A stretch of 64,000 nucleotides of DNA from Bacillota bacterium (GCA_012839815.1 DUMQ01000098.1:376-64375); one strand, 5' to 3'. Shown: positions 902-23,173, numbered from the stretch's first letter. Program-made: numbers and translations. Notes: generated by a model not told the origin, from the sequence alone.

Positions 902-3607
902 ATGTCTATCATTGTTGCTGTTATCACCGTTGTTACCGTTGTTGCCGCTCAGGGGTTGGGTTTCCCTGTCATCGACATGCCTGCCGTTGGTCACGCTCCT
1001 GCCATCTCTTTCTCCACTGGTCATGCATATGCTGCGGAGGCCACAGAGAGCGGGCAGGGCAGCGCGTCTGACGATTCGAGTGCATCGCAAGCTGGTCCTG
1101 GCGAGGCCAGCGGGGCTGGCCGTTCTGTCAGGTCTGGCGGTCCTGACGGGGGTGTCGAGACTGGCAGGGCCGTCGGGGCCGGCCGCGCCCGGCTTGTGGC
1201 CGGCGAGGTGAGCTTTGACCTTGAAAACAGGATCATCACGGCGCGGTCGAATGTCCGGCTCTTACATGAGGATGTGGAGCTAACCGCCGATTATATGGAG
1301 GTCAATTTGAATACAAACGAGGTCCTGGCGGTTGGCAATGTGTCCATGTCGAAAGAGGGCGACCGGGTCCAGGCGCAGAGCATGAAGTATAATCTCAAGA
1401 GCGAAAAGGGGACCTTTGACCACGCCCTTGCAACTGTAACGGATGAGGATATAAAGGGGGAGCTGTTCGTCTCAGGCAACAGGGTTGAGGTTGATCCCAA
1501 CGTTATAAGGATAGTCTCAGGGAGCCTCACATCGTGCGATCTCGAGGTCCCCCATTATCATATTGAAGCTTCGGAGGTTACCATCTACATCGACGATAAG
1601 GTAATTATTCGGAATGTATCCTACTGGGAGGGGCGGTATAAGATATTCCAATGGCCTTACCTCGTATTCTCATTGAAAGAGGAAAACCAGCTTGAACTCC
1701 CCAGGTTTGGTTACGGCTCCTATGAGGGCTGGTTTATCAAGACCACCTATAATTACTATCGCACCGATGCAAGCCGCGGTAAGCTCTATCTCGACTATTT
1801 CCAGAGGCTCGGTCTCGGAGCGGGTGTGAAACACCTGTATGATCTGGGCAGGATAGGTAACGGCTTCCTTTATTTATACATGCTCGGCAATCGCCTTGTG
1901 GGACATAATGACATTGAGGCCGAGGTGTCGCACGGGCTCACGCTCGGGAGGGATGTTAGAGCCGATCTCGACCTGAAGTATGAGAATACGGGGACCTCAG
2001 GCGGCGGTGAGGATAAGAGCTTCACATCGTCTGTCGCCATAAACCAGAAAGACGAGTCTGGGGCGATGAACCTCTCGTTGAAGAATGTGAGCCGCGATGG
2101 GTCTGTTTACGGCGATACGAGGAGCATATCCTTTTGGGGTGAAAGGTACATTACCGACCGGATCAGGATCGCTGCCGACGCGAGCTATCTTGATGAACAA
2201 GCATCTGACAGGGAGCGAGATAGGTATTTGAACTATAAGATAAGTATAGAAGACCAGCTGCCTTCCCTTACGTTCAACGCGGTTGTAGAGAATTACGTAA
2301 AACCGAAGCAGCCCAGCGAGGAGGAAGGGGAAGAGCTCAAGGAGGAAGAAGAGATTCCCTGGAATGCGCTGGTTCGCCTTCCTGAGATCACGATTACCAC
2401 AAAGCCTCTCACCGTGAAACCCCTGCCCGCGCCGCTCGTCTTGAAGGCTGGTTGGGGCAAGTATTCTGAGAACGCCCTCCATGATGGGTGGACGCCAAGT
2501 ATCTTGACGGCCACGCGGACGGAGGCGGGGGTTGAGGTGCCAACAAGGATCGTCCCGCTTTGGGGAGGGACCTCCGGCGACATCTCGGCATCCCTGACAT
2601 GGGATGGGTATAGCGCCATAGAGAGGCGGGGCCAGTATCTGGACTGGCAGGCCGGCCAGCAGGGTTCAGGAGGGTATGCGGAGTATTATGAACGATATGT
2701 GGCAAATGCGACGGTTGGCCTGAGATCGAGACTCACCCAATCTCTTTCGCTGCGGCTCAGCTATGATTATCAAGGGGTCTGGGGTTGGTCGCCATTCGTG
2801 TTTGACGAGCAGGAGCCCAAGGGACTCGTAGCCGCAACGCTCAGTTTCAGGAACCCCGGCTCTAGCTCTGGTTTTGGCTATGGTCATAATCGTGGTTCCG
2901 GTTATGAATGGAATGCTGAAGTAGGCGCGGGCTATGACCTCTATTATCGCGAGTTTCAAGACATCATAGGCAAATTTACATTGAGCTTCGCCGCCGGTTC
3001 CCCGGCTGGACCGCCTCGTCAGGAAGGCGTATCCGGCCCGGGGGACGCGGCAGACTCAACAGGCCCGGCGAATCCGGCAGATTCAGCAAACACGACAGAT
3101 TCAGCAAACATGACAGATTCAGCGGGCACGGCAAATCCCGTAAGCCCGGCAGAGCAAGCAGGCCCGGCAAACCTGGCAGGTGCTGGTAATTCAGGGAATC
3201 CGGGTAGGAAGTTGTCACTGGACGTGGTTGGTAGGTATGATCCAAACGCATCCCAGATGCGGGACGTGACAGGCAAGATCACATTCACGTCCAGGGAGGG
3301 CTGGGATATAAAGGCCGGGGCGCGTTATAGCTTTGAGAATAAGGCGCTGGACAGGCTCGAAAGCGAGGTAGACGTCCAAGTTAACAAAGACTGGCGCATA
3401 CAATGGACCGTGGTATATGGCGGTGTGGATGAGAAGACGATCAAGCGGGCTGATATAGGCATAACGCGTGACCTGCACTGCAGGGAACTCAGCCTCCTTT
3501 ATAGCTATAAGGACCAGGAGGTGTGGCTCGAATACAGGATCAAGGCCTTCCCGTTTGAGGGCATAAAATTCGGCCTCGGCGACCAGGGGGTGCTTTTGGG
3601 CCAGTGA
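902..3607 (+). CDS. lptD: LPS-assembly outer-membrane protein LptD (OstA N-terminal domain + C-terminal beta-barrel)
   Basis: OstA-like N-terminal region (VSFDLENRIITARSNVRLLHEDVELTADYMEVNLNTNEVLAVGNV...) followed by LptD C-terminal-type sequence (YHIEASEVTIYID...YWEGRYKIFQWPYLVFS...GYGSYEGWFIKTTYNYY). The six-frame ORF begins at 683, but a hydrophobic signal-like Met (MSIIVAVITVVTVVAAQG) at 902 is a more plausible start. Contains an in-frame low-complexity insert (see findings). Confidence 0.8.
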   Translation: MSIIVAVITVVTVVAAQGLGFPVIDMPAVGHAPAISFSTGHAYAAEATESGQGSASDDSSASQAGPGEASGAGRSVRSGGPDGGVETGRAVGAGRARLVAGEVSFDLENRIITARSNVRLLHEDVELTADYMEVNLNTNEVLAVGNVSMSKEGDRVQAQSMKYNLKSEKGTFDHALATVTDEDIKGELFVSGNRVEVDPNVIRIVSGSLTSCDLEVPHYHIEASEVTIYIDDKVIIRNVSYWEGRYKIFQWPYLVFSLKEENQLELPRFGYGSYEGWFIKTTYNYYRTDASRGKLYLDYFQRLGLGAGVKHLYDLGRIGNGFLYLYMLGNRLVGHNDIEAEVSHGLTLGRDVRADLDLKYENTGTSGGGEDKSFTSSVAINQKDESGAMNLSLKNVSRDGSVYGDTRSISFWGERYITDRIRIAADASYLDEQASDRERDRYLNYKISIEDQLPSLTFNAVVENYVKPKQPSEEEGEELKEEEEIPWNALVRLPEITITTKPLTVKPLPAPLVLKAGWGKYSENALHDGWTPSILTATRTEAGVEVPTRIVPLWGGTSGDISASLTWDGYSAIERRGQYLDWQAGQQGSGGYAEYYERYVANATVGLRSRLTQSLSLRLSYDYQGVWGWSPFVFDEQEPKGLVAATLSFRNPGSSSGFGYGHNRGSGYEWNAEVGAGYDLYYREFQDIIGKFTLSFAAGSPAGPPRQEGVSGPGDAADSTGPANPADSANTTDSANMTDSAGTANPVSPAEQAGPANLAGAGNSGNPGRKLSLDVVGRYDPNASQMRDVTGKITFTSREGWDIKAGARYSFENKALDRLESEVDVQVNKDWRIQWTVVYGGVDEKTIKRADIGITRDLHCRELSLLYSYKDQEVWLEYRIKAFPFEGIKFGLGDQGVLLGQ

Positions 3608-4401
3608 CGCGAAGAGTGACACGAGGAGTGATGCGAGGAGCTATAGTTGTCATGGCCTTGGTGCTCATCTCGGGAGCGACTTTCCTGGCGACTAATTGGC
3701 GGCTTAGGGGGTGGCTTGCGGGGCGCTGGGACCTGGCGGGGGAAAGGCAGCCGGACGGGAAGCCGGCCGGGGTGACATCGAGCGCGGCGTCAAATGAGGG
3801 AGGGCAGAAGCCTGGGATTGACATGAGCCGGACGAAGCTCGTGGGGCGCGCCAGGGGCGTGAAACAGTGGGAACTCGAGGCTGCCGAGATTAGGATACAG
3901 GAAGGCGGCAGGGCGTCGAGCGGCACGGGCGGCGGTGGGCGCGGGGGCGGTCCTGCCATTGTAGTGCTTAAGGACATCCGGGGCGGCATGATCTTCCAGG
4001 AGGGTAAGCCCAGGCTCGGGTTTGAGGCCGCGAAGGCTGAAGCCAACCCGGGGACGGGGGATTTCAAGCTCATGGGTGGGGTCTTGTTGACTGCATTGAG
4101 AACTGAGCCAACCGGTCCAAATACAGGGCCGGAGGCGACGCTGGAGGTCCCCGATCTCCGGTGGGATGCGCGGAGCGAGAGGCTCGAGTGTTCGGGCCCC
4201 GTGGAGCTTAGAACTCGTGGAGTAGTCGTGAAGGGCGAGCGGGTGTCGGGCAGCATGAAGGACAAGACGCTTGTAATCGAGGGAAACGTCAGGATATTCA
4301 AGATGAACGGGAGCCTCACATGCAAGCGCGCTATCTACCGGTTTGAGGCGGGGACGCTGGAGATCGTAGGGGAGAGCGAGCTGAACATCGATATGGGTTA
4401 A
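3604..4401 (+). CDS. lptC: LptC-like protein (N-terminal TM anchor + OstA-fold domain)
   Basis: N-terminal hydrophobic helix (GAIVVMALVLISGATFLATNW) followed by a beta-jellyroll-like region resembling the LptC/LptA family. Overlaps the lptD stop by 4 nt. Start (GTG 3604 or ATG 3631) uncertain. Confidence 0.55.
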   Translation: MTRRVTRGVMRGAIVVMALVLISGATFLATNWRLRGWLAGRWDLAGERQPDGKPAGVTSSAASNEGGQKPGIDMSRTKLVGRARGVKQWELEAAEIRIQEGGRASSGTGGGGRGGGPAIVVLKDIRGGMIFQEGKPRLGFEAAKAEANPGTGDFKLMGGVLLTALRTEPTGPNTGPEATLEVPDLRWDARSERLECSGPVELRTRGVVVKGERVSGSMKDKTLVIEGNVRIFKMNGSLTCKRAIYRFEAGTLEIVGESELNIDMG

Positions 4402-4411
4402 ACTCCGGCAT

Positions 4412-4549: not shown

Positions 4550-5476
4550 GTGGCAACAATGGGGGCGAGAGGAATGGGCAACGGCATAGCTTTTCGTATT
4601 GTTGCACGTCGTATTATTGCGAGTTTTGCGGTCTTGGCCATATTTTGGATGACCGGCGGCATAACCGGCTGCGTGGAGGGATGGTCGGCGGGCGGCCGGG
4701 CTGGCATCTCGGCTGCGGGCGTGGTCGAGGCGGCGGAGAAAGCGATGGCGGGAAAGGCGAAGGAAAAGGTCCAGATAAGAGCCGACAAGAGTGGAGATTA
4801 TGATCTTGAAAAGGACGTGCTAATCCTCGAAGGTAATGTCATCATAACCCAGGGTGAGACCGTCATCAGGGCCGATAGGGTTGAGATCGATATGAATAAA
4901 AAGGTTGCGAAAGTGACTACGGGCGTGAACCTGACCCAGCCCGACCTTGTGTTGACGGGAAAGGTGTTCACCGCATATTTGAATGATAAGCGGGTTATCG
5001 TTGAGGGCGATGTTGTGCTTCAAAAGGACGAGGAGCAGGCTTCAGCGAAACAGGGCCCGGAGAAGCCGGGGGACTCCGGCAAGATGGGGGCGATGGCGGC
5101 AGGGGCTGCAGGAACGGGCACGGGCGGTAAAGGTGAAGCCGCGAGAGGTGAAAGCGCGAGGGTAGAATCAAAGGGCGAAGTTAGCAGCAAGAAGAAGGAT
5201 AGGATCACGTTAAGGTGCGATCGTCTCGAATACTGGACTGAGAAGAAGGAAAGCACCGCGACAGGGAACATTGCCGTTACCAAAGGTGAGACAAGAGCCT
5301 GGGGCGACAAGGCGGTCTACCGCGAAAAAGACAAGCTTTTCATCCTATCCGGAAGAAAGGTCAGGGTGGAAAGGGGTAAAGGCGAGACTATGACCTGCGC
5401 GGAGCTCACCATGTACACGGACCGGGACGTGGTTGTCGCCAGGAATAACGTCGAGATAGAGTTTGAGACAGATTAG
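4550..5476 (+). CDS. lptA: LptA-like periplasmic LPS transport protein (OstA N-terminal domain)
   Basis: Repeated OstA-type motifs (LILEGNVIITQGETVIRADRVEIDM...; DRITLRCDRLEYWTEKKESTATGNIAVTKGETRAWGDKAVYREKDKLFILSGRKVRVERGKGETMTCAELTMY). N-terminal hydrophobic segment. Start uncertain (GTG 4550 or ATG 4559). Confidence 0.7.
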   Translation: MATMGARGMGNGIAFRIVARRIIASFAVLAIFWMTGGITGCVEGWSAGGRAGISAAGVVEAAEKAMAGKAKEKVQIRADKSGDYDLEKDVLILEGNVIITQGETVIRADRVEIDMNKKVAKVTTGVNLTQPDLVLTGKVFTAYLNDKRVIVEGDVVLQKDEEQASAKQGPEKPGDSGKMGAMAAGAAGTGTGGKGEAARGESARVESKGEVSSKKKDRITLRCDRLEYWTEKKESTATGNIAVTKGETRAWGDKAVYREKDKLFILSGRKVRVERGKGETMTCAELTMYTDRDVVVARNNVEIEFETD

Positions 5477-5713: not shown

Positions 5714-8416
5714 TTGCTTGTGTTTACGCTTTTCCGGGAGAGGTTCGCAAAGGACCTGCTCGAACTCCTCGTTGTCAGTATACTTGTGGGATCGTTCATT
5801 GCAGGCATCGTGGCGTTTACGGCGGATACATACTTTGGGAAGACGGTTACGGGGGTGCTCGGCGACTACGGCGAATACGATATTATTTTGCATGTCCGGG
5901 CGGAACGCAAAGCAGAGGCTTTAAAGGAAATCAGGAAGATAGCAGCGCGTGAATTCCCCGGGGCGCGAGTGAAGGAAGGACCAACACTGGTGGACAGGGC
6001 CAATTTCCTCGTGGGGTTGCCTGATTCACTGCGGCGCCGCGAGACCATCGAGAGATTGCCCCGGGTCTTCGGTGATATACCCGGGGCCAGCGGCAGCACC
6101 TATATTATAGAGCCGCGAATCGTTGTGAGCGCGGTGCAGGGCGGGGCTTTTCAGTTTTTAATGGCTCGGATTCAAAAGCTGCCGGGAGTGAGGTTTACCT
6201 TCAGGGACGGCTCGTCGATCGGTGTCGTCTTGAAATCAGTTGATGATATAAAGGGCACTGAAGAAGCGATAAAGGAGATGCTTCGTTCCTACCAAGTGGT
6301 GGAAGTCCGGCTACCTATGGGTGAAGAGATACAGGATTCCATGCGCGCTGGGGCCGCTCTTGCTAAGGAATTTGGTTCCAAACCTGAGTTTGGTTATGCG
6401 AAGGATATAACTGTCAGGTCCCGGAATGATGACATCCGAGACTTGACAGCAACCCTCATGGAGATGAGGGATTTCCTCCAGTACTATGCCGCCCATGTGA
6501 TGGTTATCCCGGATGATATTGAAAGCAAGAGGGTTGGCGATATCCATCCCGGCACCGTTCTTGTCTTACGCGCCGCAACGCGCGCAGCAGCACCTTCCCC
6601 TGGCGGCTCCACCAGGAGCGATACAGGCGTCCTCACAGCCGATGAAACCGACGAGGTTTTAATGGAAGTCAAGGAGGTTGTTAGGGAAGCTAGGGAGGCT
6701 AGTGTTGTTAGTAGGGAGGCTAGTAGAGTTAAGGACGCCAGTGGCGATAAAGCAGGCAATAAGGGTGATAATGATAATAAGGGCTATAAGATAGAAGGCA
6801 TCATTATACAGGGCGATATCTCCCAGCTTCAAGCCCGGCCCCAGTCCGGGTCACAATCGGAGCTCGTGGCGAGGGGCCAGATAAAGGCCGAGGCATACCT
6901 GCTGGGCCCGCAGGATACCATTGGGCCAAGGGTTGGCGTTGCGACCATAACAAGCGAACGGGAGCGGCTTGCCTATATGGTTGATGAGAGTATCAGGCTT
7001 ATGACCGAACTCGATAAGTTCAGCCATGATGCCTACAAGACCGCGCTGGATAGCCTCGACGTCCTGGGACTGTACGAGACCACCGTGGGGCGCCTGGTTC
7101 AGGTGCAGCGCACGCTCGAGGGTATAGATGACGGCCTCCTGATACATGGAAACACGCTGGACCAGCGGGATATAGCGAGGCTTGCGAAGGCTCTCGATGA
7201 CGCTTCAAGGGCTATGAATTCGTTTGCATCGGCCCTTGATAAGGTTAACTTCTTCGAGGCGCAGGTGGACAGGGTCCTGGGCAAGACGAGCGACGTGAGG
7301 CGCATCCTCGAGCAGGAGATACAGGCCACCTCGCCTGAAAGCTCGCCGGGCCTTTACCAGCGCCTGGTGGCGATGAAGGCTGCCCTGGATCTCGTGGAAT
7401 TCAAGGCGAGGGAGCGCGCACGGGCCATCGATAGCTTCCTCGCGGGGCTCAATCCGGCGGCGAAGAATATCGCGTCCTGGCAGGGTAAGTTCAAATCCTT
7501 AAGGAACGGCCTCGAGGACGCTAGGGCGCTGGTCAATAGCGGGAGGGCCCAGGCTATCCTCGGTGACCTGCTGGATGTGACCAACTCCACGCTCGCCCAG
7601 TTGCAGATGCTTGATATCGACAGCATGCGACAAAAGGTCGGGCGAATCTCAAGGGATCTCGAATCGCTCCAGAGTATAGACGTAAGCTCCATGATCGGCG
7701 AGTTAAAATACATCAAGGAATCTCTTCCCAATTTAAGGGATGACCAGGTGGGCCGCTCTATAAGGTTGATCGACCGTTACATCGGGGGCGAGGTTATACC
7801 CGGCGACCAGCTTCAGGTAATGGTCGACGGGCCGCCGGTTACGGTTGCCATGGCGCGCTCAGCCGCCAGGAAGGTCCTCAAGGATGATAATTTCACCGTT
7901 TTTATCACGCCGGTTGGTGTCCTCGAACCCGGCATACGGGGCGAGCTGTTCCGGGTGATGCGCGAGGCCCGGGCTACGATCGCCGCGCTCATGTCCGTGG
8001 TGTTTACCTTGCTGGTGCTGATTCTCGATCACGCTACCCTGGCGAGCGCGCTCAGGTATTTCGCGGGGCGCACAGGCTTCATAGGCTTCGACATAGGCAA
8101 GGTTTATGGCACATTTGCCGGGGCCCTGATTCTTACGCTGACGTATATGCTTTCAGGTGCCCGGATTCCTTATATTCGTCCTGCCCACATTCTCCTTGTG
8201 GGTGCCTTGATGGGTTACGTTGTGAGTTGGCAGAGTGACAAGATCAGCCCGGTTAATGAAGATGAGGTTACAGCTGCCATGGCCCTGGGGCTACCATATT
8301 CGGAAATAATAAGGGAGATAATAATACCGGCTGGAAGGCCCGGGCTGCTGCAGCTCCTGAATAGGCGCCGGATGAGGCTGCGCGCATCTGCCGGAAGCCA
8401 GCCCCGGACGGTTTAA
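5714..8416 (+). CDS. Membrane protein with FtsX/MacB-like topology: TM1, ~750-aa extracytoplasmic domain with a long coiled-coil, three C-terminal TM helices (putative ABC permease component)
   Basis: N-terminal TM (LLELLVVSILVGSFIAGIVAFTA). alpha/beta region reminiscent of FtsX/MacB periplasmic domains (DIILHVRAERKAEALKEIRKIAAREFPGARV; IIEPRIVVSAVQGGAFQFLMARIQKLPGVRFTF). ~450 aa of heptad-like coiled-coil sequence. Three hydrophobic helices at the C-terminus (ALMSVVFTLLVLIL / GALILTLTYMLSG / ILLVGALMGYVVSW). Immediately followed by an ABC ATPase. TTG start. The FtsX-family assignment is an inference from topology. Confidence 0.5.
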   Translation: MLVFTLFRERFAKDLLELLVVSILVGSFIAGIVAFTADTYFGKTVTGVLGDYGEYDIILHVRAERKAEALKEIRKIAAREFPGARVKEGPTLVDRANFLVGLPDSLRRRETIERLPRVFGDIPGASGSTYIIEPRIVVSAVQGGAFQFLMARIQKLPGVRFTFRDGSSIGVVLKSVDDIKGTEEAIKEMLRSYQVVEVRLPMGEEIQDSMRAGAALAKEFGSKPEFGYAKDITVRSRNDDIRDLTATLMEMRDFLQYYAAHVMVIPDDIESKRVGDIHPGTVLVLRAATRAAAPSPGGSTRSDTGVLTADETDEVLMEVKEVVREAREASVVSREASRVKDASGDKAGNKGDNDNKGYKIEGIIIQGDISQLQARPQSGSQSELVARGQIKAEAYLLGPQDTIGPRVGVATITSERERLAYMVDESIRLMTELDKFSHDAYKTALDSLDVLGLYETTVGRLVQVQRTLEGIDDGLLIHGNTLDQRDIARLAKALDDASRAMNSFASALDKVNFFEAQVDRVLGKTSDVRRILEQEIQATSPESSPGLYQRLVAMKAALDLVEFKARERARAIDSFLAGLNPAAKNIASWQGKFKSLRNGLEDARALVNSGRAQAILGDLLDVTNSTLAQLQMLDIDSMRQKVGRISRDLESLQSIDVSSMIGELKYIKESLPNLRDDQVGRSIRLIDRYIGGEVIPGDQLQVMVDGPPVTVAMARSAARKVLKDDNFTVFITPVGVLEPGIRGELFRVMREARATIAALMSVVFTLLVLILDHATLASALRYFAGRTGFIGFDIGKVYGTFAGALILTLTYMLSGARIPYIRPAHILLVGALMGYVVSWQSDKISPVNEDEVTAAMALGLPYSEIIREIIIPAGRPGLLQLLNRRRMRLRASAGSQPRTV

Positions 8417-8447
8417 GAGGTATGGTTCAAGAGGTGGGGATGTGTGG

Positions 8448-9188
8448 ATGGACTATCTACTGGAGATCAAGGGCCTCACAAAGAGGTTTGGCAAGACGCT
8501 CGTGCTGGACGGATTTGACCTGAACGTCGCGCGCGGCGAGACAGTGGTCATCACCGGCCCGAGCGGTTGCGGCAAATCGACGGCCCTGCGCTGCATCAAC
8601 CGCCTGACGGAGCCGGATTCGGGCAGTATAACATTCGCGGGGGTCGATATCACGAGGCTGTCCTACAGCGACCTCCTGAGGGTACGAAGGAGGATAGGCT
8701 TTGTCTTCCAACATTTCAATCTCATCGAGCGGCTCACTGCCCTCCAGAATGTCATGCTCGGCGTTATCTTTGAGGGGGTGCCATACCCTGAAGCACGCGA
8801 TATGGCCCTACGTGCCCTGGCGCGGGTCGGGATAGGCGAGATGCTTGCGTGCCGCAGGCCGTCGGAGCTGAGCGGCGGGGAGCGGCAGAGGGTGGGCATA
8901 GCGCGCGCCCTCGTGATGGATCCCGATCTCATGCTCTGGGATGAACCAACCGCCTCGCTCGACCCGATCCTGGTCGTCGACGTTTTGGACGTCATGGAGG
9001 AGCTTGTAAAGACCTCTGGAAAGACCATGATTATTGTGACACATGAAATGAAGTTTGCATCCCGCGTTGCAGACAGGATTGTGTTGCTCGACCGGGGGCG
9101 GGTAGCCGAGGAGGGGCCGCCGGGTGAGGTCTTCCTAGCCCCCAAATCTGAGATCGGGCGCCGCTATAAGCGGCTCCTGGCGGGGTAA
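8448..9188 (+). CDS. ABC transporter ATP-binding protein (GlnQ/MlaF/FtsE-like single-NBD subunit)
   Basis: Walker A GPSGCGKST, signature LSGGERQRVGIARAL, Walker B LMLWDEPTASLD, H-loop VTHEM. CINRLTEPDSGSI motif. ATG 8448 chosen over in-frame GTG 8442. Confidence 0.9.
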   Translation: MDYLLEIKGLTKRFGKTLVLDGFDLNVARGETVVITGPSGCGKSTALRCINRLTEPDSGSITFAGVDITRLSYSDLLRVRRRIGFVFQHFNLIERLTALQNVMLGVIFEGVPYPEARDMALRALARVGIGEMLACRRPSELSGGERQRVGIARALVMDPDLMLWDEPTASLDPILVVDVLDVMEELVKTSGKTMIIVTHEMKFASRVADRIVLLDRGRVAEEGPPGEVFLAPKSEIGRRYKRLLAG

Positions 9189-10338: not shown

Positions 10339-10339
10339 A

Positions 10340-10460
10340 CCCCACGCCTGAAGGGATTTCATGTAGATTCGGCATAATTGATCGGTGTCAGCATAATTGA
10401 CCGGTATCGATATACTTTACCGGTATCGGTATAATTTAATTTGCCGGTATAGGTAATTGA
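10340..10460. repeat. Degenerate tandem repeats (~19-20 bp, CATAATTGACCGGTATCG-like, ~6 copies) between lpxC and fabZ
   Basis: Direct reading: ggcataattgatcggtgtca / gcataattgaccggtatcga / tatactttaccggtatcgg / tataatttaatttgccggtatagg / taattgagcggtatagg. Confidence 0.7.
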
Positions 10461-10524
10461 GCGGTATAGGTATTACGGAACGGCATGAGAGGATTGACGG
10501 ACGAGGGGGAGGCTTTTGGTCTGG

Positions 10525-10981: not shown

Positions 10982-11030
10982 GAATTGAGGAATGAGAATA
11001 ATTGAGGAATGAGGAGCGGGGGCTGTTATA
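10965..11030. repeat. Mini tandem repeat TTGAGGAATGAGAA x3 spanning the fabZ stop/lpxA start junction
   Basis: aatattgaggaatgagaattgaggaatgagaataattgaggaatgagg. Confidence 0.6.
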
Positions 11031-11032
11031 TA

Positions 11033-12696: not shown

Positions 12697-12751
12697 ATGT
12701 ATACCATGGCAGGTGGCAACGTGAAAGCTTGTGAAGCTTGAAGGTGGACCA

Positions 12752-13900: not shown

Positions 13901-14019
13901 ACTTGCCTCGGGTGGCGCACCTCTTCTCGCCCGGTCGAAGGGGTGTATCTGGAAGACCCTGCGACGTGAAATGGGCGGGCGGGGCATGCGAAGAGACGCA
14001 GAGGGGGGAGGGAGGCCCG

Positions 14020-15327: not shown

Positions 15328-15329
15328 GG

Positions 15330-17075
15330 ATGCTTAATTTAATAAGACCCTACCTGCACTACCTCGGAGCCGGGATCGTTTGCACGATCTTCGTCGGCCT
15401 GGCTAATCTGGCTGTCTATTGGATCATAAAGGATGTGATCGACCAGGTATTGACGAGGACGGATTCTGCCGGGGTATCGCACCAGCTCAACCTCATCATC
15501 CTTGGGATACTGGTGCTTTTCTCTCTCAAAGGCCTGTTTTACTACGGCCAGGTCTACCTGATGGCTTTTGTGGGACAACGGGCCGTGGTAGACTTGCGGA
15601 ATAAACTATATACCCACTTGCAACGCCTCTCCATCAGTTTTCACGAGGCAAGGCGCACGGGTGATATGATTTCCAGGATCACCAATGACGTTGCTACGAT
15701 CCAGACGAGCCTGTCAACGGGCATAGCCGACCTGTTGCTCCAGGTTGTAACCCTCGCCGGGATCGTGGGCTTTATGTTTTACCTGGACTGGAAGCTTTCG
15801 CTCGTGACGATTATAACGATACCGGCGGTTGCCGCCGTTGTGTCGAGGGCGGGACACAGGCTGCGCACGATAACCGCGCTTATTCAGGGCAAGATCGCGG
15901 ATATCACGTCGGTGCTGGAGGAGACGTTATCAGGCATCCGGATCGTAAAGGCCTTTACCATGGAGCGCCAGGAAATCAAGAGGTTTGCAAGGGAGAATGA
16001 GGACAGTTTTGCCGTTACCATGAGGGGCGCAAAGGTGAATGCTATCATCGCCCCGCTTGTGGAGCTCCTAGCGGTTCTCGGGACGGCAGCAGTCCTCTGG
16101 TATGGCGGCCACCAGGTCATTAGGGGGTCGCTGACGCTGGGGGAGTTTATGGCGTTTCTTGGGTGCGTTGGAAGCGCTCCAACTCCCATGGGACGGCTTT
16201 CAGCGACATATGCCTCATTCCAGCAGGCCCTCGGTGCCGCGGATAGGGTCTTCGCCCTCCTGGACGTGAAGATTGATGTTGTGGATGATCCCAATGCGGT
16301 TCCGCTCCCTCCTATAAAGGGGCATGTGGAGTTCAAGAATGTATCATTCGCATATGGTGACGGCGAGCTCGCGCTGGATGGTATAAACCTCAGCGCCAGG
16401 CCGGGCGAGGTCATAGCGTTTGTCGGGCCGAGCGGCGCGGGCAAGACGACGCTGGTGAATCTCCTCCTGCGCTTTTACGACCCCCTGTCAGGCTCGGTTG
16501 AGATCGATGGCTATGACCTGCGGAACGTGCAGGTTGAGTCCCTGAGGCGGCAGATAGGTCTGGTGCCCCAGGATGTGGTGCTTTTTGGGGTGACTGTCAG
16601 GGAGAATATTGCCTACGGCAAGGATGATGCGACCCTGGATGAGATCATCCAGGCTGCGAAAATGGCGAATGCCCATGATTTCATAATGAAGCTGCCGGCC
16701 GGCTACGAAACGAGGCTCGGCGAGCGTGGCGTTTCGCTGTCGGGCGGGCAGCGCCAGCGCATCGCGATAGCGCGAGCGATTCTGAGAAACCCGCGCATCT
16801 TGATTCTTGATGAGGCCACGTCATCGCTGGATGCGGAGTCCGAGGCTCTTATCCAGGAGGCCCTGGCGAGATTGGTAAAGGACAGGACAACGTTTATAAT
16901 AGCTCACAGGCTTTCGACCGTCAGGAATGCGGATAAGATCGTAGTGCTCGACCGGGGGAAGATTGTGGAGGTTGGGACCCACCTCGAGCTCCTGGCGAAG
17001 GGGGGCCTCTACAGCAGATTATCGCTCATGCAGTTTTCCCAGGGTGGGCCTGCGGTAAGAGAAGAAGCTATATGA
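15330..17075 (+). CDS. msbA: Lipid A/LPS flippase-type ABC exporter (MsbA-like, TMD-NBD fusion)
   Basis: Six-TM exporter domain followed by an NBD (GPSGAGKTT, LSGGQRQRIAIARAIL, ILILDEATSSLD). Position within the lpx/lpt cluster supports an MsbA role (inference). Confidence 0.8.
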   Translation: MLNLIRPYLHYLGAGIVCTIFVGLANLAVYWIIKDVIDQVLTRTDSAGVSHQLNLIILGILVLFSLKGLFYYGQVYLMAFVGQRAVVDLRNKLYTHLQRLSISFHEARRTGDMISRITNDVATIQTSLSTGIADLLLQVVTLAGIVGFMFYLDWKLSLVTIITIPAVAAVVSRAGHRLRTITALIQGKIADITSVLEETLSGIRIVKAFTMERQEIKRFARENEDSFAVTMRGAKVNAIIAPLVELLAVLGTAAVLWYGGHQVIRGSLTLGEFMAFLGCVGSAPTPMGRLSATYASFQQALGAADRVFALLDVKIDVVDDPNAVPLPPIKGHVEFKNVSFAYGDGELALDGINLSARPGEVIAFVGPSGAGKTTLVNLLLRFYDPLSGSVEIDGYDLRNVQVESLRRQIGLVPQDVVLFGVTVRENIAYGKDDATLDEIIQAAKMANAHDFIMKLPAGYETRLGERGVSLSGGQRQRIAIARAILRNPRILILDEATSSLDAESEALIQEALARLVKDRTTFIIAHRLSTVRNADKIVVLDRGKIVEVGTHLELLAKGGLYSRLSLMQFSQGGPAVREEAI

Positions 17076-17148
17076 AATTATGCCGCCGTTTCCCTGGAGG
17101 TTTTTGCGAGTTGCGCGCGAAGTAAACCCGGGAGAGGAGGTTGGTGCC

Positions 17149-18327
17149 GTGAGGGCTATGGTGATGGCCGCGGGTGTCGGCTCAAGGCTTGAGCCCTTGA
17201 CGTGTAATATTCCCAAGCCCATGGTGCCGGTGGTAAACAGGCCGGCAATGGCGCATATCATTGATCTTTTGAAGCGCCACGGGATATTCGAGGTGGTTGC
17301 CAACCTCTGGTATCTTCCACACGTTATAGAGAATTACTTTGGAGATGGGCGGGATTTTGGCATCCATCTGGAATATTCTAAGGAAGACACACTACTGGGC
17401 ACTGCCGGCGGGGTGCGACAGGCGAGGCACTACTTCGATGGCACCTTCGTGCTGATAGCCGGCGATGCGCTTACAGATATAGACCTGACGGCCCTGGTCG
17501 AATTCCACCGTTCGAAGCGCGCCCTCGCGACCATAGCTTTAAAACCCGTGGATGATCCTTCCCGTTTCGGCGTGGTTGTCACGGAAGGAGACGGCCGGAT
17601 CGTGCGGTTTCAGGAGAAGCCCCGGCCGGGGGAGGCGGCCAGCAACCTGGCGAATACAATGATCTATGTTTTTGAACCGGGGATTTTCGATTTTATCCCC
17701 GGCGAGGGAACCCCTGACTTCGGGCGCGATGTGTTCCCGCTGCTTGTCGCCGAGAGGGTGCCATTTTACGGCTACCCTATCTCCGATTACTGGTGTGATA
17801 TCGGGACGCTGGCTCAGTACCGCCGGGCCCACTATGATGTCCTGGCTGGCAGGGTGAGGATAGAGATGCCGGGCGGGCGCGGAGATGGTAGCCACGGAGG
17901 CGGAGATGTTAGGCACGGAGACGGCGAGAGCGAGAACTACGGAGGTGTGGCGGCCGGCCTGTGGATAGGGGAAGGGGCCAGGATCGCTTCTGATGCCAGG
18001 CTAATGAGCCCTGTCGTCGTAGGTAGGGGCAGCATGATCCGGCCGGGTGCGGTAATAGGCCCCAATACGGTGGTTGGCGACGGGTGCATTATAGATGAGG
18101 GGGCCGTGATATCGGGGAGCGTCATCTGGAGCAATACCCATGTAGGGCGCAATGCCTGTCTCACGGAGTGCGTTGTGGGGAGCGAGTGTTATCTGGGGTC
18201 CGGGGCGTCGGTCGGCGAGGGCGTCGTCCTGAGCGATGAGTGCGTAGTGGAGGACGCGAGCAGGATCAAGCCAAATGTCAGGATCTGGCCCCGGGGGACC
18301 GTGAGGAGCAAAGTTAGCGTGTGGTGA
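17149..18327 (+). CDS. Sugar-phosphate nucleotidyltransferase with C-terminal hexapeptide-repeat (LbH) domain (ManC/GlmU-like)
   Basis: MAAGVGSRLEPLT...KPMVPV (NTP_transferase G-x-G-x-R-L motif) and GDALTDIDL. C-terminal hexapeptide repeats (GARIASDARLMSPVVVGRGSMIRPGAVIGPNTVVGDG...). GTG 17149 with GGAGAGGAGG RBS. Low-complexity insert GGRGDGSHGGGDVRHGDGESENYGG. Confidence 0.8.
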   Translation: MRAMVMAAGVGSRLEPLTCNIPKPMVPVVNRPAMAHIIDLLKRHGIFEVVANLWYLPHVIENYFGDGRDFGIHLEYSKEDTLLGTAGGVRQARHYFDGTFVLIAGDALTDIDLTALVEFHRSKRALATIALKPVDDPSRFGVVVTEGDGRIVRFQEKPRPGEAASNLANTMIYVFEPGIFDFIPGEGTPDFGRDVFPLLVAERVPFYGYPISDYWCDIGTLAQYRRAHYDVLAGRVRIEMPGGRGDGSHGGGDVRHGDGESENYGGVAAGLWIGEGARIASDARLMSPVVVGRGSMIRPGAVIGPNTVVGDGCIIDEGAVISGSVIWSNTHVGRNACLTECVVGSECYLGSGASVGEGVVLSDECVVEDASRIKPNVRIWPRGTVRSKVSVW

Positions 18328-18407
18328 GGGTCGACCACCCCACGCCTGAAGCCGGGGCGCCCATGGGGCACCCGGCACCGCATAATCTTGGTGGTGGGGG
18401 TAGTATA

Positions 18408-19103
18408 GTGAGTGGTGGCGCGCGGTCGCGGCTGGTTGTGCTGCTTAGCTTTATAATTATCGCAAGCGGGGTCTTTGCGGGCCTTCTGGCCAGATATTAC
18501 CTTGCGAGCCGGGCGCCGGCGCCGTCCCGGGCACTCTCCGAGGAGACCGGGGTTAATGGGGCGGGAGATTCACCTGGGGGAGAAGCGCCTCACGAGGGAA
18601 CCGGGGAGGCGAGGGAGCCGAGTGTGATACCAAACCCCAACTTTACGCTGGAGGGGAGCACGATGTTGATCACGGGCCCCGGCGGCGACAGGGAGTGGGA
18701 ACTCGAGGTCGGCGAGGTCCGTATTTCAGAGACGGATAACAAGGCCGAGCTTACCGGCGTTGAGGCGACAAGATTTCAGGGCGGGAAGATCGTTTTCAGG
18801 GTTAAGGCGGGGCGCGCGATCGTGGACTGGAAGACCAGAGACCTGGTTTTCCGGGGCGGGGTCGAGGTCTACGGTGGCGGCGGGGACCGCGCCGGAGCCG
18901 GCCCGGCACCGGTGCCGGTGCCGGCATTGGGGTTCAGGGCGGCGGAGGCCGAGTGGCACGCCGATTCGGAGAAACTGGCGGCCACAGGGGATGTTGAGTA
19001 CTGGAACGGGGCTACCACGATATCAGGCAGGAGCCTCAGTGCGGATGCACGACTGCAGAGGGTACTGGTGGAGGGGCCTGCAAGGCTGGTTGTCAGAAGG
19101 TGA
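18408..19103 (+). CDS. Second LptC-like protein (TM anchor + OstA-fold)
   Basis: RLVVLLSFIIIASGVFAGLLARYY TM, then an OstA-like strand pattern (EWELEVGEVRISETDNKAELTGVEATRFQGGKIVFRVKAGRAIVDWKTRDLVFRGGVEVYG). The six-frame ORF starts at 18321. GTG 18408 (preceded by GGTGGTGGGGG) gives a typical short cytoplasmic N-terminus. Confidence 0.55.
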   Translation: MSGGARSRLVVLLSFIIIASGVFAGLLARYYLASRAPAPSRALSEETGVNGAGDSPGGEAPHEGTGEAREPSVIPNPNFTLEGSTMLITGPGGDREWELEVGEVRISETDNKAELTGVEATRFQGGKIVFRVKAGRAIVDWKTRDLVFRGGVEVYGGGGDRAGAGPAPVPVPALGFRAAEAEWHADSEKLAATGDVEYWNGATTISGRSLSADARLQRVLVEGPARLVVRR

Positions 19104-20476
19104 TGGGGCAAGGTGATGGGGTTTTGATTCTCTTCATCAGCAACGGCCACGGCGAGGATTTGATCGGGGCGATAGTTGCCCATGAGCTACTGGAGCTGAT
19201 GAGACAGGCGGATAGTAAGGCGGCCAGTGATGCGGCCGGCGTCTGCGCCCTTCCCCTTGTTGGCCTGGGGCGCCCTTACCGGGATGCAGGCATCCGGGTC
19301 CTGGGCGAGACCCGCGTCCTGCCGAGCGGTGGATTTGCAAAGCATGGGGTGAGCCTTTTCCTGCGCGACCTGGCGGCGGGCCTTCCTGGCCTGACTCTGG
19401 CCCAGATACGCACGATGCAGGGGGTCAGGAACCAAGTCAGGCTGGCGGTGTGCGTCGGGGATATCTACCCCGTTCTCATGGCAAGGTTGTTTCTGGGCAG
19501 CCCGATCCTGTTTCTTTCTACGGCGAAATCCGAGTATATTAGGGGCCATCTCGGCATCGAGAAACTGGTAATGCGGCGCACGTGTGAGCTTGTGCTTGCC
19601 CGCGATGAGGCCACGGCCATGGCTCTCAGGCGTTCAGGGGTTAGGGCCAGGTTTGTCGGGAATGTGATGATGGACAGCTTCAGCATAACGGGCGAGAATT
19701 TCGGTCTCTCTCTTGAGCGAAAGGTCGTCGGCATTATGCCAGGGTCCCGGGAAGAGGCATACGATAATATGGCCGCTATACTCAATGCCGTCGTAAGGCT
19801 GGATTACCTGAGCGGCGGGGCGCTTGATTTCCTTGCTGCTCTCGCGCCGAGCCTGGACGTGGAGAGACTTGGGAGAAGGGTAGATGCGTGCGGGTGGGAG
19901 TTTGTGAGCGCTCCGGTGCCCGCGGAGTCGGGTGTGGTAGGAGAGCTCCGCTGCCGCAGGCCGGGCAGATCTGGATCTGTATCCGGGTCTGTATGTGGAT
20001 CCGGATTTGGATCTGGACATGGACCGGGTAGAGATGGAGATGAAGCTGGAGCCGGAGCTGGAGCTGGAGATAGAGATAGAGGTGGAGATAGGGCAGCCCG
20101 CGAGATCCGGGTGGTGGTGACACAGGGCAGGTTTGGAGATGTCCTAAACATCGCAAGTATTTTTATCGGCCTCGCAGGCACGGCGAATGAACAGGCGTGC
20201 GGGATGGGCAAGCCCGTCGTGGCCTTTGTGGGGCGCGGTCCCCAGTTTAACCGGAGGTTTGCGCTTGCGCAGAAGAGGCTCCTCGGCGATGCCCTTTCGA
20301 TCGTTGAATCCGATCCTGATATCGTTGCCAGGGAGGTCCTGGCCATACTGAACGATACGTCGCGATATAATGCGGCAAGGAAAACGGGTGCCGAAAGGAT
20401 GGGCGGGCCCGGTGGTGCCAGGCGGGTGGCCGGGCTTATCCGGAATTATCTAGAAAATGGGACATGGGGGGAATAA
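19100..20476 (+). CDS. Second lipid-A-disaccharide synthase-related glycosyltransferase (GT19-like; TIGR03492-type)
   Basis: VLILFISNGHGEDLIGAIVAHEL N-terminus and overall LpxB-like collinearity. Carries a simple-sequence insert (GSGSVSGSVCGSGFGSGHGPGRDGDEAGAGAGAGDRDRGGDR). Overlaps the upstream stop. Confidence 0.6.
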   Translation: MMGQGDGVLILFISNGHGEDLIGAIVAHELLELMRQADSKAASDAAGVCALPLVGLGRPYRDAGIRVLGETRVLPSGGFAKHGVSLFLRDLAAGLPGLTLAQIRTMQGVRNQVRLAVCVGDIYPVLMARLFLGSPILFLSTAKSEYIRGHLGIEKLVMRRTCELVLARDEATAMALRRSGVRARFVGNVMMDSFSITGENFGLSLERKVVGIMPGSREEAYDNMAAILNAVVRLDYLSGGALDFLAALAPSLDVERLGRRVDACGWEFVSAPVPAESGVVGELRCRRPGRSGSVSGSVCGSGFGSGHGPGRDGDEAGAGAGAGDRDRGGDRAAREIRVVVTQGRFGDVLNIASIFIGLAGTANEQACGMGKPVVAFVGRGPQFNRRFALAQKRLLGDALSIVESDPDIVAREVLAILNDTSRYNAARKTGAERMGGPGGARRVAGLIRNYLENGTWGE

Positions 20477-20479
20477 CCT

Positions 20480-21277
20480 ATGCGGAAAGGGTTTCAGACG
20501 CGGGGGGTGGGACTTATGCGCGAGGTGGAGTACATAAAACACATAAAAGTTGAGCGCATGATACCTGCGGGGCGCATAGGGTTAAGATGGCTGGTGTTGC
20601 TCGTCGTTTGGGTGGGATGCATGGGGGCCGTGGCCCCGGGGGCTTCGATCGCAGGACTGGGGCCGGCGTGGGGGCCCGGTGTGGCTTGGGCTGCCTCACA
20701 GGCGGATAGTGCCAAAGCCGCTCAACCGGTCGAGGTGACGGCGAGCGGCAGCATGGAGTATGATGCCCAAAAGAAGATAACCAGGGCTAGCGGCAACGTA
20801 ATTGTAAAATACAAGACGTTTATATTATCCGGCGACTCCGTGGTATTTGAGGAGGGCCCGATGAAGGCCAGCATCCAGGGAAACGCTAGATTCCAGGATA
20901 CGGCCCCGGAGTCTGGCGCTACGATGACGGCCCAGAATATTGTGGCCTTGCTCAAGGATAAAAGGGTGACAGCTATGGGCAGGGTGAATCTCAAGCGCGG
21001 GGAGATGCTCCTTACGGCAGATAAGGTCGATGGTTACCTTAATGAGGATAGGGCCGTTGCCGAGGGGAACGTGAGGATCGTGCAGGAGGATCTTGTAGCG
21101 ACCGGGGATTTTGTTACATATCTGGATAAGGAGAAGAAGGCAGTTATCTCGGGTCACGCTCGCGTCGAGAGCGACGGCAGGGTGTTCACGGGCGGGAAGA
21201 TAACGGTGCTCATGGACGAGAAGCGCGTTATCGGCAGCGAGGGGACGCGGCTTGTCATACCCGTGAAGGAAGAGTAG
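20480..21277 (+). CDS. Second LptA-like periplasmic LPS transport protein (OstA N-terminal domain)
   Basis: Signal-like N-terminus. OstA repeats (VEVTASGSMEYDAQKKITRASGNVIVKYKTFILSGDSVVFEEG...; LLTADKVDGYLNEDRAVAEGNVRIVQEDLVATGDFVTYLDKEKKAVISGHARVE). Lies directly upstream of lptB, as in the canonical lptA-lptB arrangement. Confidence 0.7.
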   Translation: MRKGFQTRGVGLMREVEYIKHIKVERMIPAGRIGLRWLVLLVVWVGCMGAVAPGASIAGLGPAWGPGVAWAASQADSAKAAQPVEVTASGSMEYDAQKKITRASGNVIVKYKTFILSGDSVVFEEGPMKASIQGNARFQDTAPESGATMTAQNIVALLKDKRVTAMGRVNLKRGEMLLTADKVDGYLNEDRAVAEGNVRIVQEDLVATGDFVTYLDKEKKAVISGHARVESDGRVFTGGKITVLMDEKRVIGSEGTRLVIPVKEE

Positions 21278-21377: not shown

Positions 21378-22097
21378 ATGGGAATCATCGTTGAAAACCT
21401 CGTGAAAGTCTATGGCAGGAGGCGCGTGGTTGACGGCGTGAGCCTCGAGGTGAATGAGGGTGAGGTTGTCGGGCTCCTGGGCCCGAATGGCGCCGGCAAG
21501 ACCACGACCTTCTATATGATTGTCGGCCTTGAGGCTGTTACAGGCGGGAGGATCCTGCTCGGGAAGCGCGACATTACGGGGCTGCCCATACACGTGCGGG
21601 CGAGGCTGGGCATCGGGTACCTGGCCCAGGAGCCGTCTATATTCCGGCGCCTCACGGTCGAACAGAACATCCTCGCTATTCTCGAGTTGATGGGCATGAC
21701 ACAAGAAGAGCGCCTCGAGCGCCTGGAGGAGCTCCTTGTCAAGCTGGATATTGTCCATCTACGGAAGCAGGCGGGCTACATGCTTTCAGGCGGGGAGAGG
21801 CGGCGCGTCGAGATTGCCAGGACCCTCGCGGCCTCGCCGTCTTTTATTCTTTTAGATGAGCCTTTCACGGGGGTGGACCCAATAGCGGTAGCTGATATCC
21901 AGGGCCTCATCGCCCGCTTCCGCGACGAGGGACTGGGCATTCTCATCACGGACCATAGCGTCCGTGAGACCCTTGCCATTGTAGATAGGGCGTATATTAT
22001 GCACCAGGGAAGGATTCTGGTCTCGGGGGACGCAGGCATGGTTGCGCGTGACCCTATTGCGAGGAAATTCTACCTCGGGGAGAGGTTCAGCCTGTGA
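21378..22097 (+). CDS. lptB: LPS export ABC transporter ATPase LptB
   Basis: Near-collinear with LptB: [69 protein letters not shown]. Confidence 0.9.
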
Positions 22098-23173
22098 GAA
22101 CGCTCAACCGTTACATACTTCGTGAACTGATCGAGCCATTTATCTTTGGGGTTGCGGCGTTTACGAGCATCTTCATCGCCGGCGACCTCCTCTTTTCCAT
22201 TGCTCGGCTTCTCGCTGACGGGACGATAAGCGTGAACTGTGCCATCCAGCTTTTCGTCCTGGGGATACCGAGGATTGTTGTCATTACATTCCCTATGTCC
22301 GTGCTTCTCGGAACACTGTTATGCTTCGGGAGGCTTTCGGATTCCAGCGAGATCGTGGCGATGCGGGCCGCAGGTGTGAGCACGCGAAGCATCATCGCGC
22401 CGGCCATCTTGCTTGCCGTTGTGATGAGCCTCTTTACAGTCTTTTTGAATGAGACCATCGTGCCAGCGTCCAATCAGGCCTCCCAGGACATTCTCTGGAG
22501 TGTGACGAATCGGGGGAAGCCCCTTACGGAGAAGGATATCGTCATCAAGACGTTCAGGGACGGGCGGCTGGACAGGCTGGTGTATGCCGAGGAGTTTGAC
22601 GCGGATAAGAAGGAGCTGACCAACGTCACGGTACAGGATTTCAGGAACGGCAAGCTTGTGCGGGTGACAAACGCTCCAAAGGCGATCTGGGACCGGAATA
22701 GATGGTGGTTTATGAACGGGGCCATGTATGACATCGTCGACGGGAACCGGATGGTCTCCGTTACGTTTAAGACTCATGAGAGCCTTATAGCTCAGGCGCC
22801 CGAAGAGATCGCCCGCAGGCAGAAGACCCCGCAGGAGATGGGGATAAGCGAGCTCAGGGCGTATATCAGGATGTTGCGGGAACAGGGCCAGAATGTTTCG
22901 GCACTCCTGGTGGAGCTCTACCTGAAGCTCGCCATTCCCTTCGCGAGCCTGGTATTCGCCCTGGTCGGTGCCCCTCTTGGGATACGGACGAGGAGATCGT
23001 CATCATCGCTTGGCTTTGGGACGAGTATAATCCTAATCTTTATATATTATGTTATAATGAGCATGGGGACAGCCTTCGGACAGCGCGGTAGTGTGCCACC
23101 GTTTATTGGCGCATGGTCGCAGAATTTTATTTTCGGAGGCATAGGCCTCTGGATGGTGCTGCGGAGCGACTAA
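22094..23173 (+). CDS. LPS export ABC permease LptF/LptG (YjgP/YjgQ family)
   Basis: [28 protein letters not shown]-terminus typical of the LptF/G family. Six TM helices plus a periplasmic beta-jellyroll insert. Overlaps the lptB stop by 4 nt. Only one LptF/G paralog is visible in the window. Confidence 0.85.

Follow-up and report, generated by a model that had tools for sequence, protein, structure and literature searches.

Lipopolysaccharide (LPS) transport in diderm Firmicutes is known from a four-gene lpt cluster, lptC-lptA-lptB-lptF/G, described in Negativicutes and Halanaerobiales (Antunes 2016, PMC5007114; Poppleton 2017, PMC5491611). LptD of Veillonella parvula lies outside this main cluster and is preceded by two conserved uncharacterised outer-membrane proteins (PMC5491611), which were proposed as substitutes for LptE; LptE itself is not reported from diderm Firmicutes (PMC10665443, PMC13018214). 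Two LptD-like proteins were described in Acetonema longum in 2026: F7NLY8 (480 amino acids, 16 strands) and F7NII2 (729 amino acids, about 26 low-confidence strands) (PMC13018214). F7NLY8 gave the only significant match to an LptD hidden Markov model (HMM), was consistently detected in proteomics and was called the functional LptD, and the authors propose another role for F7NII2 (PMC13018214). LPS-less Thermotoga maritima carries a fused LptF/G-LptA-LptD "pABC permease" (G4FGC1), for which transport of lipids to the toga is proposed (PMC10160955). How diderm Firmicutes build their outer membrane without LptE, Lol and Bam lipoproteins is an open question, tied to the origin of one-membraned bacteria. 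Here we analyse a stretch of 64,000 nucleotides from a Bacillota bacterium (GCA_012839815.1 DUMQ01000098.1:376-64375; hereafter the window), in which Lpt bridge components and LpxB-like glycosyltransferases occur in more than one version.

The source organism is an uncultured diderm Bacillota bacterium, kin to Limnochordia-like lineages. The window represents an outer-membrane supercluster comprising lpxC, fabZ, lpxA, lpxI, lpxB, msbA, lpt genes and genes for a DUF3084 protein, an SLH-anchored OmpM and a RuvX-like protein, with all relevant genes on the plus strand. An original prediction, made from the sequence, had listed duplicated Lpt proteins and LpxB paralogs in it; all genes named there proved to be real plus-strand open reading frames (ORFs), at or near the positions where they had been placed. 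The lpt genes can be assigned to two modules. Module A consists of a long lptD, lptC2 and lptA2. Module B consists of lptC1, a gene of the TIGR03492 family, lptA1, lptB, lptF/G and a short lptD. The respective features are as follows.

902-3607, + strand: LptD2, long LptD-type outer-membrane protein, 901 amino acids, module A (family profile, AlphaFold model, Foldseek)
3604-4401, + strand: LptC2, membrane-anchored OstA-fold protein, module A; 4-base overlap of its start with the lptD2 stop
4550-5476, + strand: LptA2, secreted OstA-fold protein, 308 amino acids, module A (Pfam LptD_N 56.5 bits in two stretches)
18321-19103, + strand: LptC1, membrane-anchored LptC, module B (Pfam LptC 32.6 bits, cut-off 21; TIGR04409 39.3 bits, cut-off 38)
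19100-20476, + strand: LpxB-related glycosyltransferase of the TIGR03492 family, between lptC1 and lptA1; 4-base overlap with lptC1, translationally coupled
20480-21277, + strand: LptA1, secreted OstA-fold LptA, module B (Pfam LptD_N 61.5 bits, cut-off 20.4)
21378-23173, + strand: lptB and a single lptF/G of the B-type (TIGR04406 344 bits; TIGR04408 243.5 bits; TIGR04407 185.8 bits)
33008-34483, + strand: LptDs, short LptD-type protein with jellyroll and presumably smaller barrel, 491 amino acids from the likely start at 33008 (512 amino acids if read from 32945)

The extra Lpt genes do not represent stray duplicates but belong to two old modules that are paralogous to each other. Identity between the copies is 23% for the LptC pair, 29% for the LptA pair and 26% for the LptD pair (over the N-terminal 227 residues). 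Since these values are so low, the copies must be old, and a recent tandem duplication was rejected on the same grounds. By sequence, the small OstA proteins form four families, which match the four gene positions. Moreover, genes overlap within each module of the window, which indicates co-translation. We favour the reading that the two modules form two parallel Lpt bridges sharing LptB, rather than one longer heteromeric bridge, and estimate its probability at roughly 0.55.

LptD2 is composed of a signal peptide, a disordered linker, a beta-jellyroll and a large barrel. As a single sequence it reaches 19.0-19.2 bits with Pfam LptD_N, below the cut-off of 20.4; it is not matched by PF04453 and scores 24 bits with the NCBIfam LptD equivalog NF002997 (cut-off 683). 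PF04453 does match four of 15 members of the LptD2 family, and the profile of this family (15 homologs) retrieves solved LptD and LptA chains with a best E of 1.2e-15. In the AlphaFold (AF2) model, with mean pLDDT (predicted confidence) of 73, about 30 strands follow the jellyroll, and long low-complexity insertions are modelled at low confidence. The best 37 matches of this model to PDB in Foldseek are all LptD (best E 1.8e-22, about 900 aligned columns, TM-score 0.38-0.46). LptD2 is the copy nearer to canonical 26-strand LptD in both sequence profile and fold, and its designation as a full-length LptD in the original prediction was borne out. Cys212 and Cys860 are invariant in the 15 homologs, one located after the jellyroll and the other near the C-terminus. 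The LptDs family likewise has two invariant cysteines, C140 after the jellyroll and C469 near the C-terminus. Cysteines at such positions would be expected for the interdomain disulfide of LptD, to which the pair may correspond in both types. One distant LptD2 match (P0050) has an uninformative neighbourhood.

All four small OstA-fold proteins were confirmed by LptC and LptD_N HMMs together with hhalign, LptC2 staying just under the cut-offs (Pfam LptC 20.3 bits against 21; TIGR04409 29.8 against 38, E 3.8e-7). The LptC2 family profile is aligned to that of the LptC1 family with hhalign probability of 98.1%, and its N-terminal transmembrane (TM) helix is kept across 28 homologs; a TM anchor is present in LptC1 as well. 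The LptA2 and LptA1 families are related at 99.8% hhalign probability. With TIGR03002, LptA2 gives 60.6 and LptA1 63.1 bits, both under the equivalog cut-off of 71.7. Homologs of both have cleavable signal peptides, and both proteins are longer than a single jellyroll. LptA2 was also considered as a lipoprotein; this was rejected, the lipobox-like "ITGC" of the window not being kept in homologs.

Module B contains the LptB2FG parts, LptB with 344 bits (cut-off 240) and LptF/G with 243.5 bits (cut-off 240), each as sole copy in the window. By analogy with A. longum, where a homodimer is reported, LptF/G of the window is assumed to be homodimeric. The short LptD-like paralog is genuine as well: LptDs scores 34.1 bits with Pfam LptD_N (cut-off 20.4), its profile matches LptD in PDB with E of 3.9e-10 over the jellyroll and the first barrel strands, and hhalign relates it to LptD2 with 99.9% over 437 columns. 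An exhaustive profile search returned 418 representative clusters of the LptDs family at E<=1e-30, many of them 450-530 amino acids long. Armatimonadota carry both short and long LptD forms. In other lineages, LptDs homologs adjoin LpxB-MsbA, Wzy_C and ArnT-like genes. LptDs is likely the outer-membrane end of module B. The original prediction, which took the long protein for the LptD and the short one for its paralog, seems to have inverted the roles, as it is the short form that is regarded as the working LptD in studies of Acetonema and Veillonella (PMC13018214, PMC5491611).

To place the modules in context, related loci were fetched with protein X, a permease encoded directly after module A (see below), as anchor. 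This yielded 80 loci, one genome per species, which were mapped by phmmer and custom HMMs. Gene absences were judged from 10 kb on each side of X (about 22 kb per locus), not from whole genomes. By their labels, nearly all loci belong to Sporomusaceae/Selenomonadales, Limnochordia, Hydrogenispora, Halanaerobiales and unclassified Bacillota; four are metagenome-assembled genome records of other phyla. The comparison with Negativicutes, Halanaerobiales and Limnochordia clusters suggested in the original prediction resolved two conserved modules. Module A is found directly upstream of X in 27 of the 80 species-level loci. The layout of these relatives is lpxD ... lptF/G' - lptD2 - lptC2 - lptA2 - X - ABCx, continued by lpxC - fabZ - lpxA - lpxI - lpxB - lpxB2 - msbA - NTP-transferase (nucleotidyltransferase) - lptC1, where ABCx is the ATPase partner of X and lptF/G' a second lptF/G gene. 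In Negativicutes, lpxD, a YjbH-like gene and lpxL are followed directly by X-ABCx, and module A is not there. The Hydrogenispora-like layout is X - ABCx - lpxC ... lpxI - lptC - lptA - lptB - lptF/G - DUF3084, again with no module A beside X.

Module A also occurs apart from module B. Three loci (L065, L067 and L077) contain module A together with lptB, and LptC1, LptA1 and a B-type LptF/G are not seen in them. These loci (L077 being taken together with L002) keep module A, X-ABCx, one paralog related to glycosyltransferase family GT19, lptB, DUF3084 and OmpM; within the approximately 22 kb viewed for each, no lpxC, lpxA, lpxI, lpxD, msbA or module-B OstA gene is found. The lineages concerned may be LPS-less diderm Bacillota. 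OmpM of L065, L067 and L077 is the longest observed (818-1232 amino acids, with about 1200 reached in L065 and L067), and a single LptC/LptA pair is present in each cluster. Module A tolerates splitting: in L010 and L013, a block of about 4 kb on the opposite strand is found between lptD2 and lptC2, and ORFs of the L013 block resemble genes of sugar-type ATP-binding cassette (ABC) transporters by sequence.

Analysis of the position upstream of lptD2 revealed a further component of module A. LptD2 is visible in 23 of the 27 module-A loci; an LptF/G gene, often overlapping, lies directly upstream of it in 18 of these and is fused to it in 2 more. In a tree, these upstream copies (LptF/G') and the LptF/G proteins encoded after lptB form two separate clades, the window's copy belonging to the B clade. 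Because both clades score about equally on LptF and LptG models, they are lineage-specific paralogs and not counterparts of proteobacterial F and G. The two fusions are single ORFs of 1103 (L065, 4669-7980) and 1115 amino acids (L067, 3325-6672), come from independent assemblies and keep the former signal peptide as a linker helix. Several full-length LptF/G'-LptD2 fusions of 1100 amino acids, from different sources, are contained in protein cluster P0201 (54 members). Such fusions strongly indicate that LptF/G' and LptD2 are parts of one machine. Another LptF_LptG and LptD_N fusion, P0052, was noted in L086 (1542-4748).

The corresponding slot of the window is occupied as follows.

1-662, + strand: C-terminal end of an MNT-type nucleotidyltransferase (1-263) and HEPN gene (264-662; Pfam HEPN 81 bits)

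The MNT reading of positions 1-263 comes from the sequence itself. GC content of the MNT-HEPN region is 0.51, compared with about 0.57 elsewhere. It is a toxin-antitoxin-like insertion in the place where relatives carry lptF/G'. The LptF/G' gene of this genome may lie just upstream of the window, may be situated elsewhere or may have been lost. In a relative with 73% identity, the contig begins at lptA2.

Taken together, module B most likely carries lipid A-based LPS. MsbA would flip it, and LptB2 with LptF/G would extract it and pass it to LptC1, then to LptA1 and finally to the short LptD. For module A, a second Lpt-type bridge is the most likely role; it would run parallel to the first, also draw on LptB, and carry LPS, another glycolipid or another lipid. 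We prefer two bridges to one chain because some of the examined loci show module A alone and others module B alone, because fusion ties LptF/G' specifically to LptD2, and because L065, L067 and L077 have the longest OmpM and yet a single LptC/LptA pair; the number of bridge genes thus does not track OmpM length. Several points weigh against this reading. The locus of a Limnochordia member (L072) combines a complete lpx set with the two LptF/G paralogs and lptB, and its sole LptC/LptA pair is that of module A. Such a locus resembles a single canonical machine built on an F/G heterodimer and makes the module boundary less sharp. The HMM scan of every window ORF found no second LptF/G; module A here would depend on the B-type permease or on one encoded beyond the window. 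The claim of a single lptF/G in the original prediction holds for the window but not for the lineage, relatives of which carry LptF/G'. Furthermore, the absences employed above refer to the 10-kb flanks of X instead of whole genomes. Family membership, the age of the paralogs, synteny, the LptF/G'-LptD2 fusions and the separate occurrence of the modules in these loci were observed; parallel operation of the modules, their use of a common LptB and the cargo of module A are inferred.

OmpM of the window (25652-28480, 942 amino acids) has an SLH domain and, as originally predicted, a long coiled coil of about 255 residues (approximately 80-335). That of V. parvula OmpM1 spans roughly residues 64-113, i.e. 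about 50 residues (PMC10628300), so the coiled coil in the window is about five times longer.

This length is relevant to the proposal that all components work in one composite machine, in which the LptF/G paralogs form a heterodimer and the four OstA proteins, with one or both LptDs, make up a single longer or branched bridge across a wide periplasm. Such an arrangement would suit the long coiled coil (about 255 residues against about 50, PMC10628300), the sole lptB in the window, the LptA1 and LptA2 proteins that exceed single jellyroll length, and L072 with its two LptF/G paralogs and one LptC/LptA pair. On the other hand, the published Negativicutes system works with one LptF/G and one LptC/LptA pair (PMC5007114, PMC13018214), the same set is seen in Hydrogenispora-like loci, the loci with the longest OmpM have one LptC/LptA pair in the cluster, LptF/G' is fused specifically to LptD2, and a single chain needs no two different LptD barrels. 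We consider a composite machine unlikely. The longer heteromeric bridge for a wide periplasm, offered in the original prediction, has accordingly lost ground to the separate modules, the LptF/G'-LptD2 fusion and the mismatch with OmpM length; the data agree with its other suggestion, a second substrate or route, and a second route is likelier than a longer bridge.

A second substrate is the essence of another explanation, according to which module B alone handles LPS and module A is a conduit for cargo other than lipid A, such as a glycolipid made by LpxB2 (the GT19-like protein encoded after LpxB) or the TIGR03492 protein, bulk membrane lipid or surface lipoproteins. The retention of module A, X-ABCx, a GT19 paralog and lptB in L065, L067 and L077, loci without lpxC, lpxA, lpxI, lpxD, msbA and module-B OstA genes, agrees with it, as do the altered motifs in the LpxB copy of L077 and the fused protein of LPS-less T. 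maritima with its proposed role in moving lipids to the toga (PMC10160955). The Acetonema authors proposed a different role for the long LptD-like protein, and a Borrelia LptD homolog is reportedly needed to flip surface lipoproteins through the outer membrane (both in PMC13018214, the latter as cited there). This is to be set against the closeness of LptD2 to canonical 26-strand LptD by profile and fold, the location of module A inside the lpx cluster, the module-A LptC/LptA of L072 being the sole pair beside a full lpx set, and the fact that lpx absence was judged within about 22 kb. We mention only tentatively that module A, perhaps with X-ABCx and a GT19 paralog, might independently conduct some lipid across the envelope that is not lipid A-based LPS, and that it persists in relatives from which lipid A synthesis seems to have been lost. 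If true, it would be a Bacillota counterpart of the LPS-less Thermotoga fusion, and Lpt-type bridges would be general lipid highways in Terrabacteria instead of machines for LPS alone. Finally, module A of the window might be a decaying remnant whose three genes became non-functional after a mobile toxin-antitoxin pair displaced the permease gene. MNT-HEPN sits exactly in the LptF/G' position and has lower GC, and LptD2 contains long low-complexity insertions for which model confidence is low. Nevertheless, all three ORFs are intact and keep family-invariant residues including both conserved cysteines, the lptD2/lptC2 overlap is preserved, and the contig runs about 2.2 kb beyond the window, leaving room for LptF/G' upstream of the insertion. 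Decay thus appears very improbable, and two parallel bridges sharing LptB remain our preferred reading.

The window also encodes a canonical LpxB and two paralogs of it, one of which is the above TIGR03492-family protein of module B.

12731-13900, + strand: canonical LpxB (295 bits; TIGR00215 288 bits, cut-off 190)
13903-15327, + strand: LpxB2, divergent GT19-like glycosyltransferase, 474 amino acids, directly after lpxB

As had been predicted, both paralogs are GT19-like by full-length hhalign to LpxB, just as the extra OstA ORFs are Lpt-type. LpxB2 gives a partial match of 54.7 bits to Pfam LpxB (cut-off 22.6) and 63.5 bits to TIGR00215, below the equivalog cut-off of 190. It matches LpxB in PDB at E of 1e-9 and is aligned full-length to LpxB with 99.9% hhalign probability. 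The PGSR and GT..E motifs are kept, the WAW segment is absent and there is a C-terminal insertion of about 20 amino acids. Motifs of its own are strongly conserved across 23 homologs, which argues for LpxB2 being an active enzyme; by similarity we classify it as GT19-like and not as LpxB. In relatives of the window it likewise follows lpxB, and in two Hydrogenispora-like loci it occurs without canonical lpxB in view. LpxB2 could therefore make the disaccharide in place of LpxB, act together with LpxB or serve the synthesis of another lipid. The TIGR03492 protein scores 317.1 bits with its family model (cut-off 219.2) and is aligned full-length to LpxB by hhalign with 98.9%. No published description of the TIGR03492 or "LpxB-related" protein was found in the literature searched. 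In L072 its gene sits between lpxB and lptB. From gene position in the window alone, a role in core glycosylation might be guessed. Compared with LpxB, both paralogs are alignable over full length and retain PGSR and GT..E in the C-terminal half, but differ in the N-terminal half by an altered GE(A/T)SGD motif and the lack of the WAW segment. Their lipid acceptor probably differs from that of LpxB, or else they serve a different step.

Directly after module A, an adjacent ABC system (5714-9188) that was missed in the original prediction is encoded.

5714-8416, + strand: X, atypical inner-membrane permease, 900 amino acids, directly after module A
8442-9188, + strand: ABCx, ABC ATPase partner of X, GlnQ/PhnC/MetN type (Pfam ABC_tran 124 bits)

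The topology of X (AF2 model with pLDDT of 72, DSSP) comprises TM1, an ectodomain of about 690 amino acids, three further TMs and an EAA-like coupling motif at the C-terminus; the ectodomain is built from alpha/beta domains and long helical stretches. X has no Pfam family, no sequence match in PDB and no convincing fold match there. With BPD_transp_1 it gives 17.1 bits (cut-off 26.4), confined to the C-terminal 75 residues, and 9 of 15 X homologs match this family weakly at the C-terminus. Identification of X as a Type I ABC importer permease was rejected: besides the score below cut-off, the model has four TMs, where at least five are needed, and a huge ectodomain. X is not a hidden LptF/G either (hhalign probability 2%). 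The best NCBIfam matches of ABCx are importer-type ATPases, all under cut-off. A role of ABCx as second LptB was rejected on account of these matches and of its accompanying X even in loci without module A. ABCx follows X in nearly all 80 loci. The system is conserved across diderm Firmicutes. Since X-ABCx precedes lpxC in nearly all loci that still have lpxC, whether module A is present or not, it is probably an independent envelope system outside module A.

The remaining neighbours complete the picture of an envelope cluster.

9361-13900, + strand: lpxC, fabZ, lpxA, lpxI and canonical lpxB (Pfam LpxC 277, FabA 133, LpxB 295 bits)
15279-18327, + strand: msbA-like ABC flippase and sugar-1-phosphate nucleotidyltransferase with left-handed beta-helix domain
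29933-32619, + strand: predicted beta-barrel outer-membrane protein of 418 amino acids and secreted protein of 342 amino acids, upstream of LptDs (OMP_b-brl and porin matches)

In the first region, Pfam also matches Acetyltransf_11 and Hexapep (lpxA) and LpxI_N/C (lpxI). None of lpxD, lpxK, waaA and kds genes was found anywhere in the 64-kb window. The msbA-like protein contains ABC_membrane and ABC_tran and scores 540 bits with TIGR02203, under the cut-off. The nucleotidyltransferase (17080-18327), encoded between msbA and lptC1, has an NTP_transferase domain (167 bits) and hexapeptide repeats, and the order MsbA-NTP-LptC1 is kept in relatives. Negativicutes have waaA-lpxK-kdsB after msbA; at this position the window has the nucleotidyltransferase, lptC1 and the TIGR03492 gene. 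A DUF3084 coiled-coil protein is encoded at 23359-24915 and a RuvX-like (COG0816) protein at 28490-29080, both conserved unknowns of the diderm-Firmicute cluster (Antunes 2016, PMC5007114). The pair at 29933-32619 is also found after OmpM and the RuvX-like gene in L077/L002 and may, by analogy, correspond to the two outer-membrane proteins upstream of V. parvula lptD. The genes that follow the short LptD (34564-39958) encode an epimerase, glycosyltransferases of families GT2 and GT4 and a Wzy_C protein of the O-antigen ligase type; as a group, they resemble a block for the attachment of a polysaccharide or O-antigen. In Limnochordia-like loci, the lpxA-lpxI gap is occupied by a gene for a polytopic membrane protein of 204-220 amino acids (L072:16895-17509, L075:14326-14988). 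The 204-amino-acid ORF of L072 had been considered as a hidden OstA protein and was rejected on its polytopic sequence. By eye, this protein resembles isoprenylcysteine or phospholipid methyltransferases, and it could be a lipid-modifying enzyme.

Two anciently diverged Lpt modules, together with single-module relatives and permease-LptD fusions, offer a natural comparison for the roles of LptD, the cargo of Lpt systems and their ancestral parts. X-ABCx and both GT19 paralogs may represent new steps in the handling of envelope lipids. No account of a complete second module, equipped with LptF/G, LptC and LptA of its own, was found in the literature searched; in searches for a second Lpt system or LptD paralogs, the Acetonema paper alone was relevant. 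There, as in the window, one short and one long LptD-type protein are encoded near LPS genes, and, compared by size, the short and long forms match respectively; the long form gives weak LptD HMM matches in both. When the text of that paper was searched by term, no dedicated LptC, LptA or LptF/G paralog was found described with the long form (PMC13018214).

Module B agrees with the Lpt cluster known from diderm Firmicutes in gene order and in its single LptF/G, and the same neighbours (DUF3084, OmpM, RuvX-like) occur in the window. The short LptD is likewise encoded apart, with two uncharacterised envelope proteins before it. In addition, the window has the TIGR03492 gene between lptC and lptA, and the second set of genes, module A, in the same cluster. 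With E. coli LptB2FGC-LptA-LptDE, the window shares folds and logic, i.e. ABC extractor, anchored LptC, soluble LptA and jellyroll-plus-barrel LptD, and the LptD2 model aligns to solved LptD over full length. In contrast to E. coli, its LptF/G paralogs are not F and G orthologs, LptA proteins are longer and bridge components exist in two versions. As in Thermotoga G4FGC1, to which they are likened by architecture, the fusions of L065, L067 and P0201 join an inner-membrane permease to the outer-membrane end, and those of L065 and L067 sit in loci without lpx genes. In Bacillota, unlike in G4FGC1, LptC2 and LptA2 are still encoded by genes separate from the fusion, and in the window itself all these genes are unfused.

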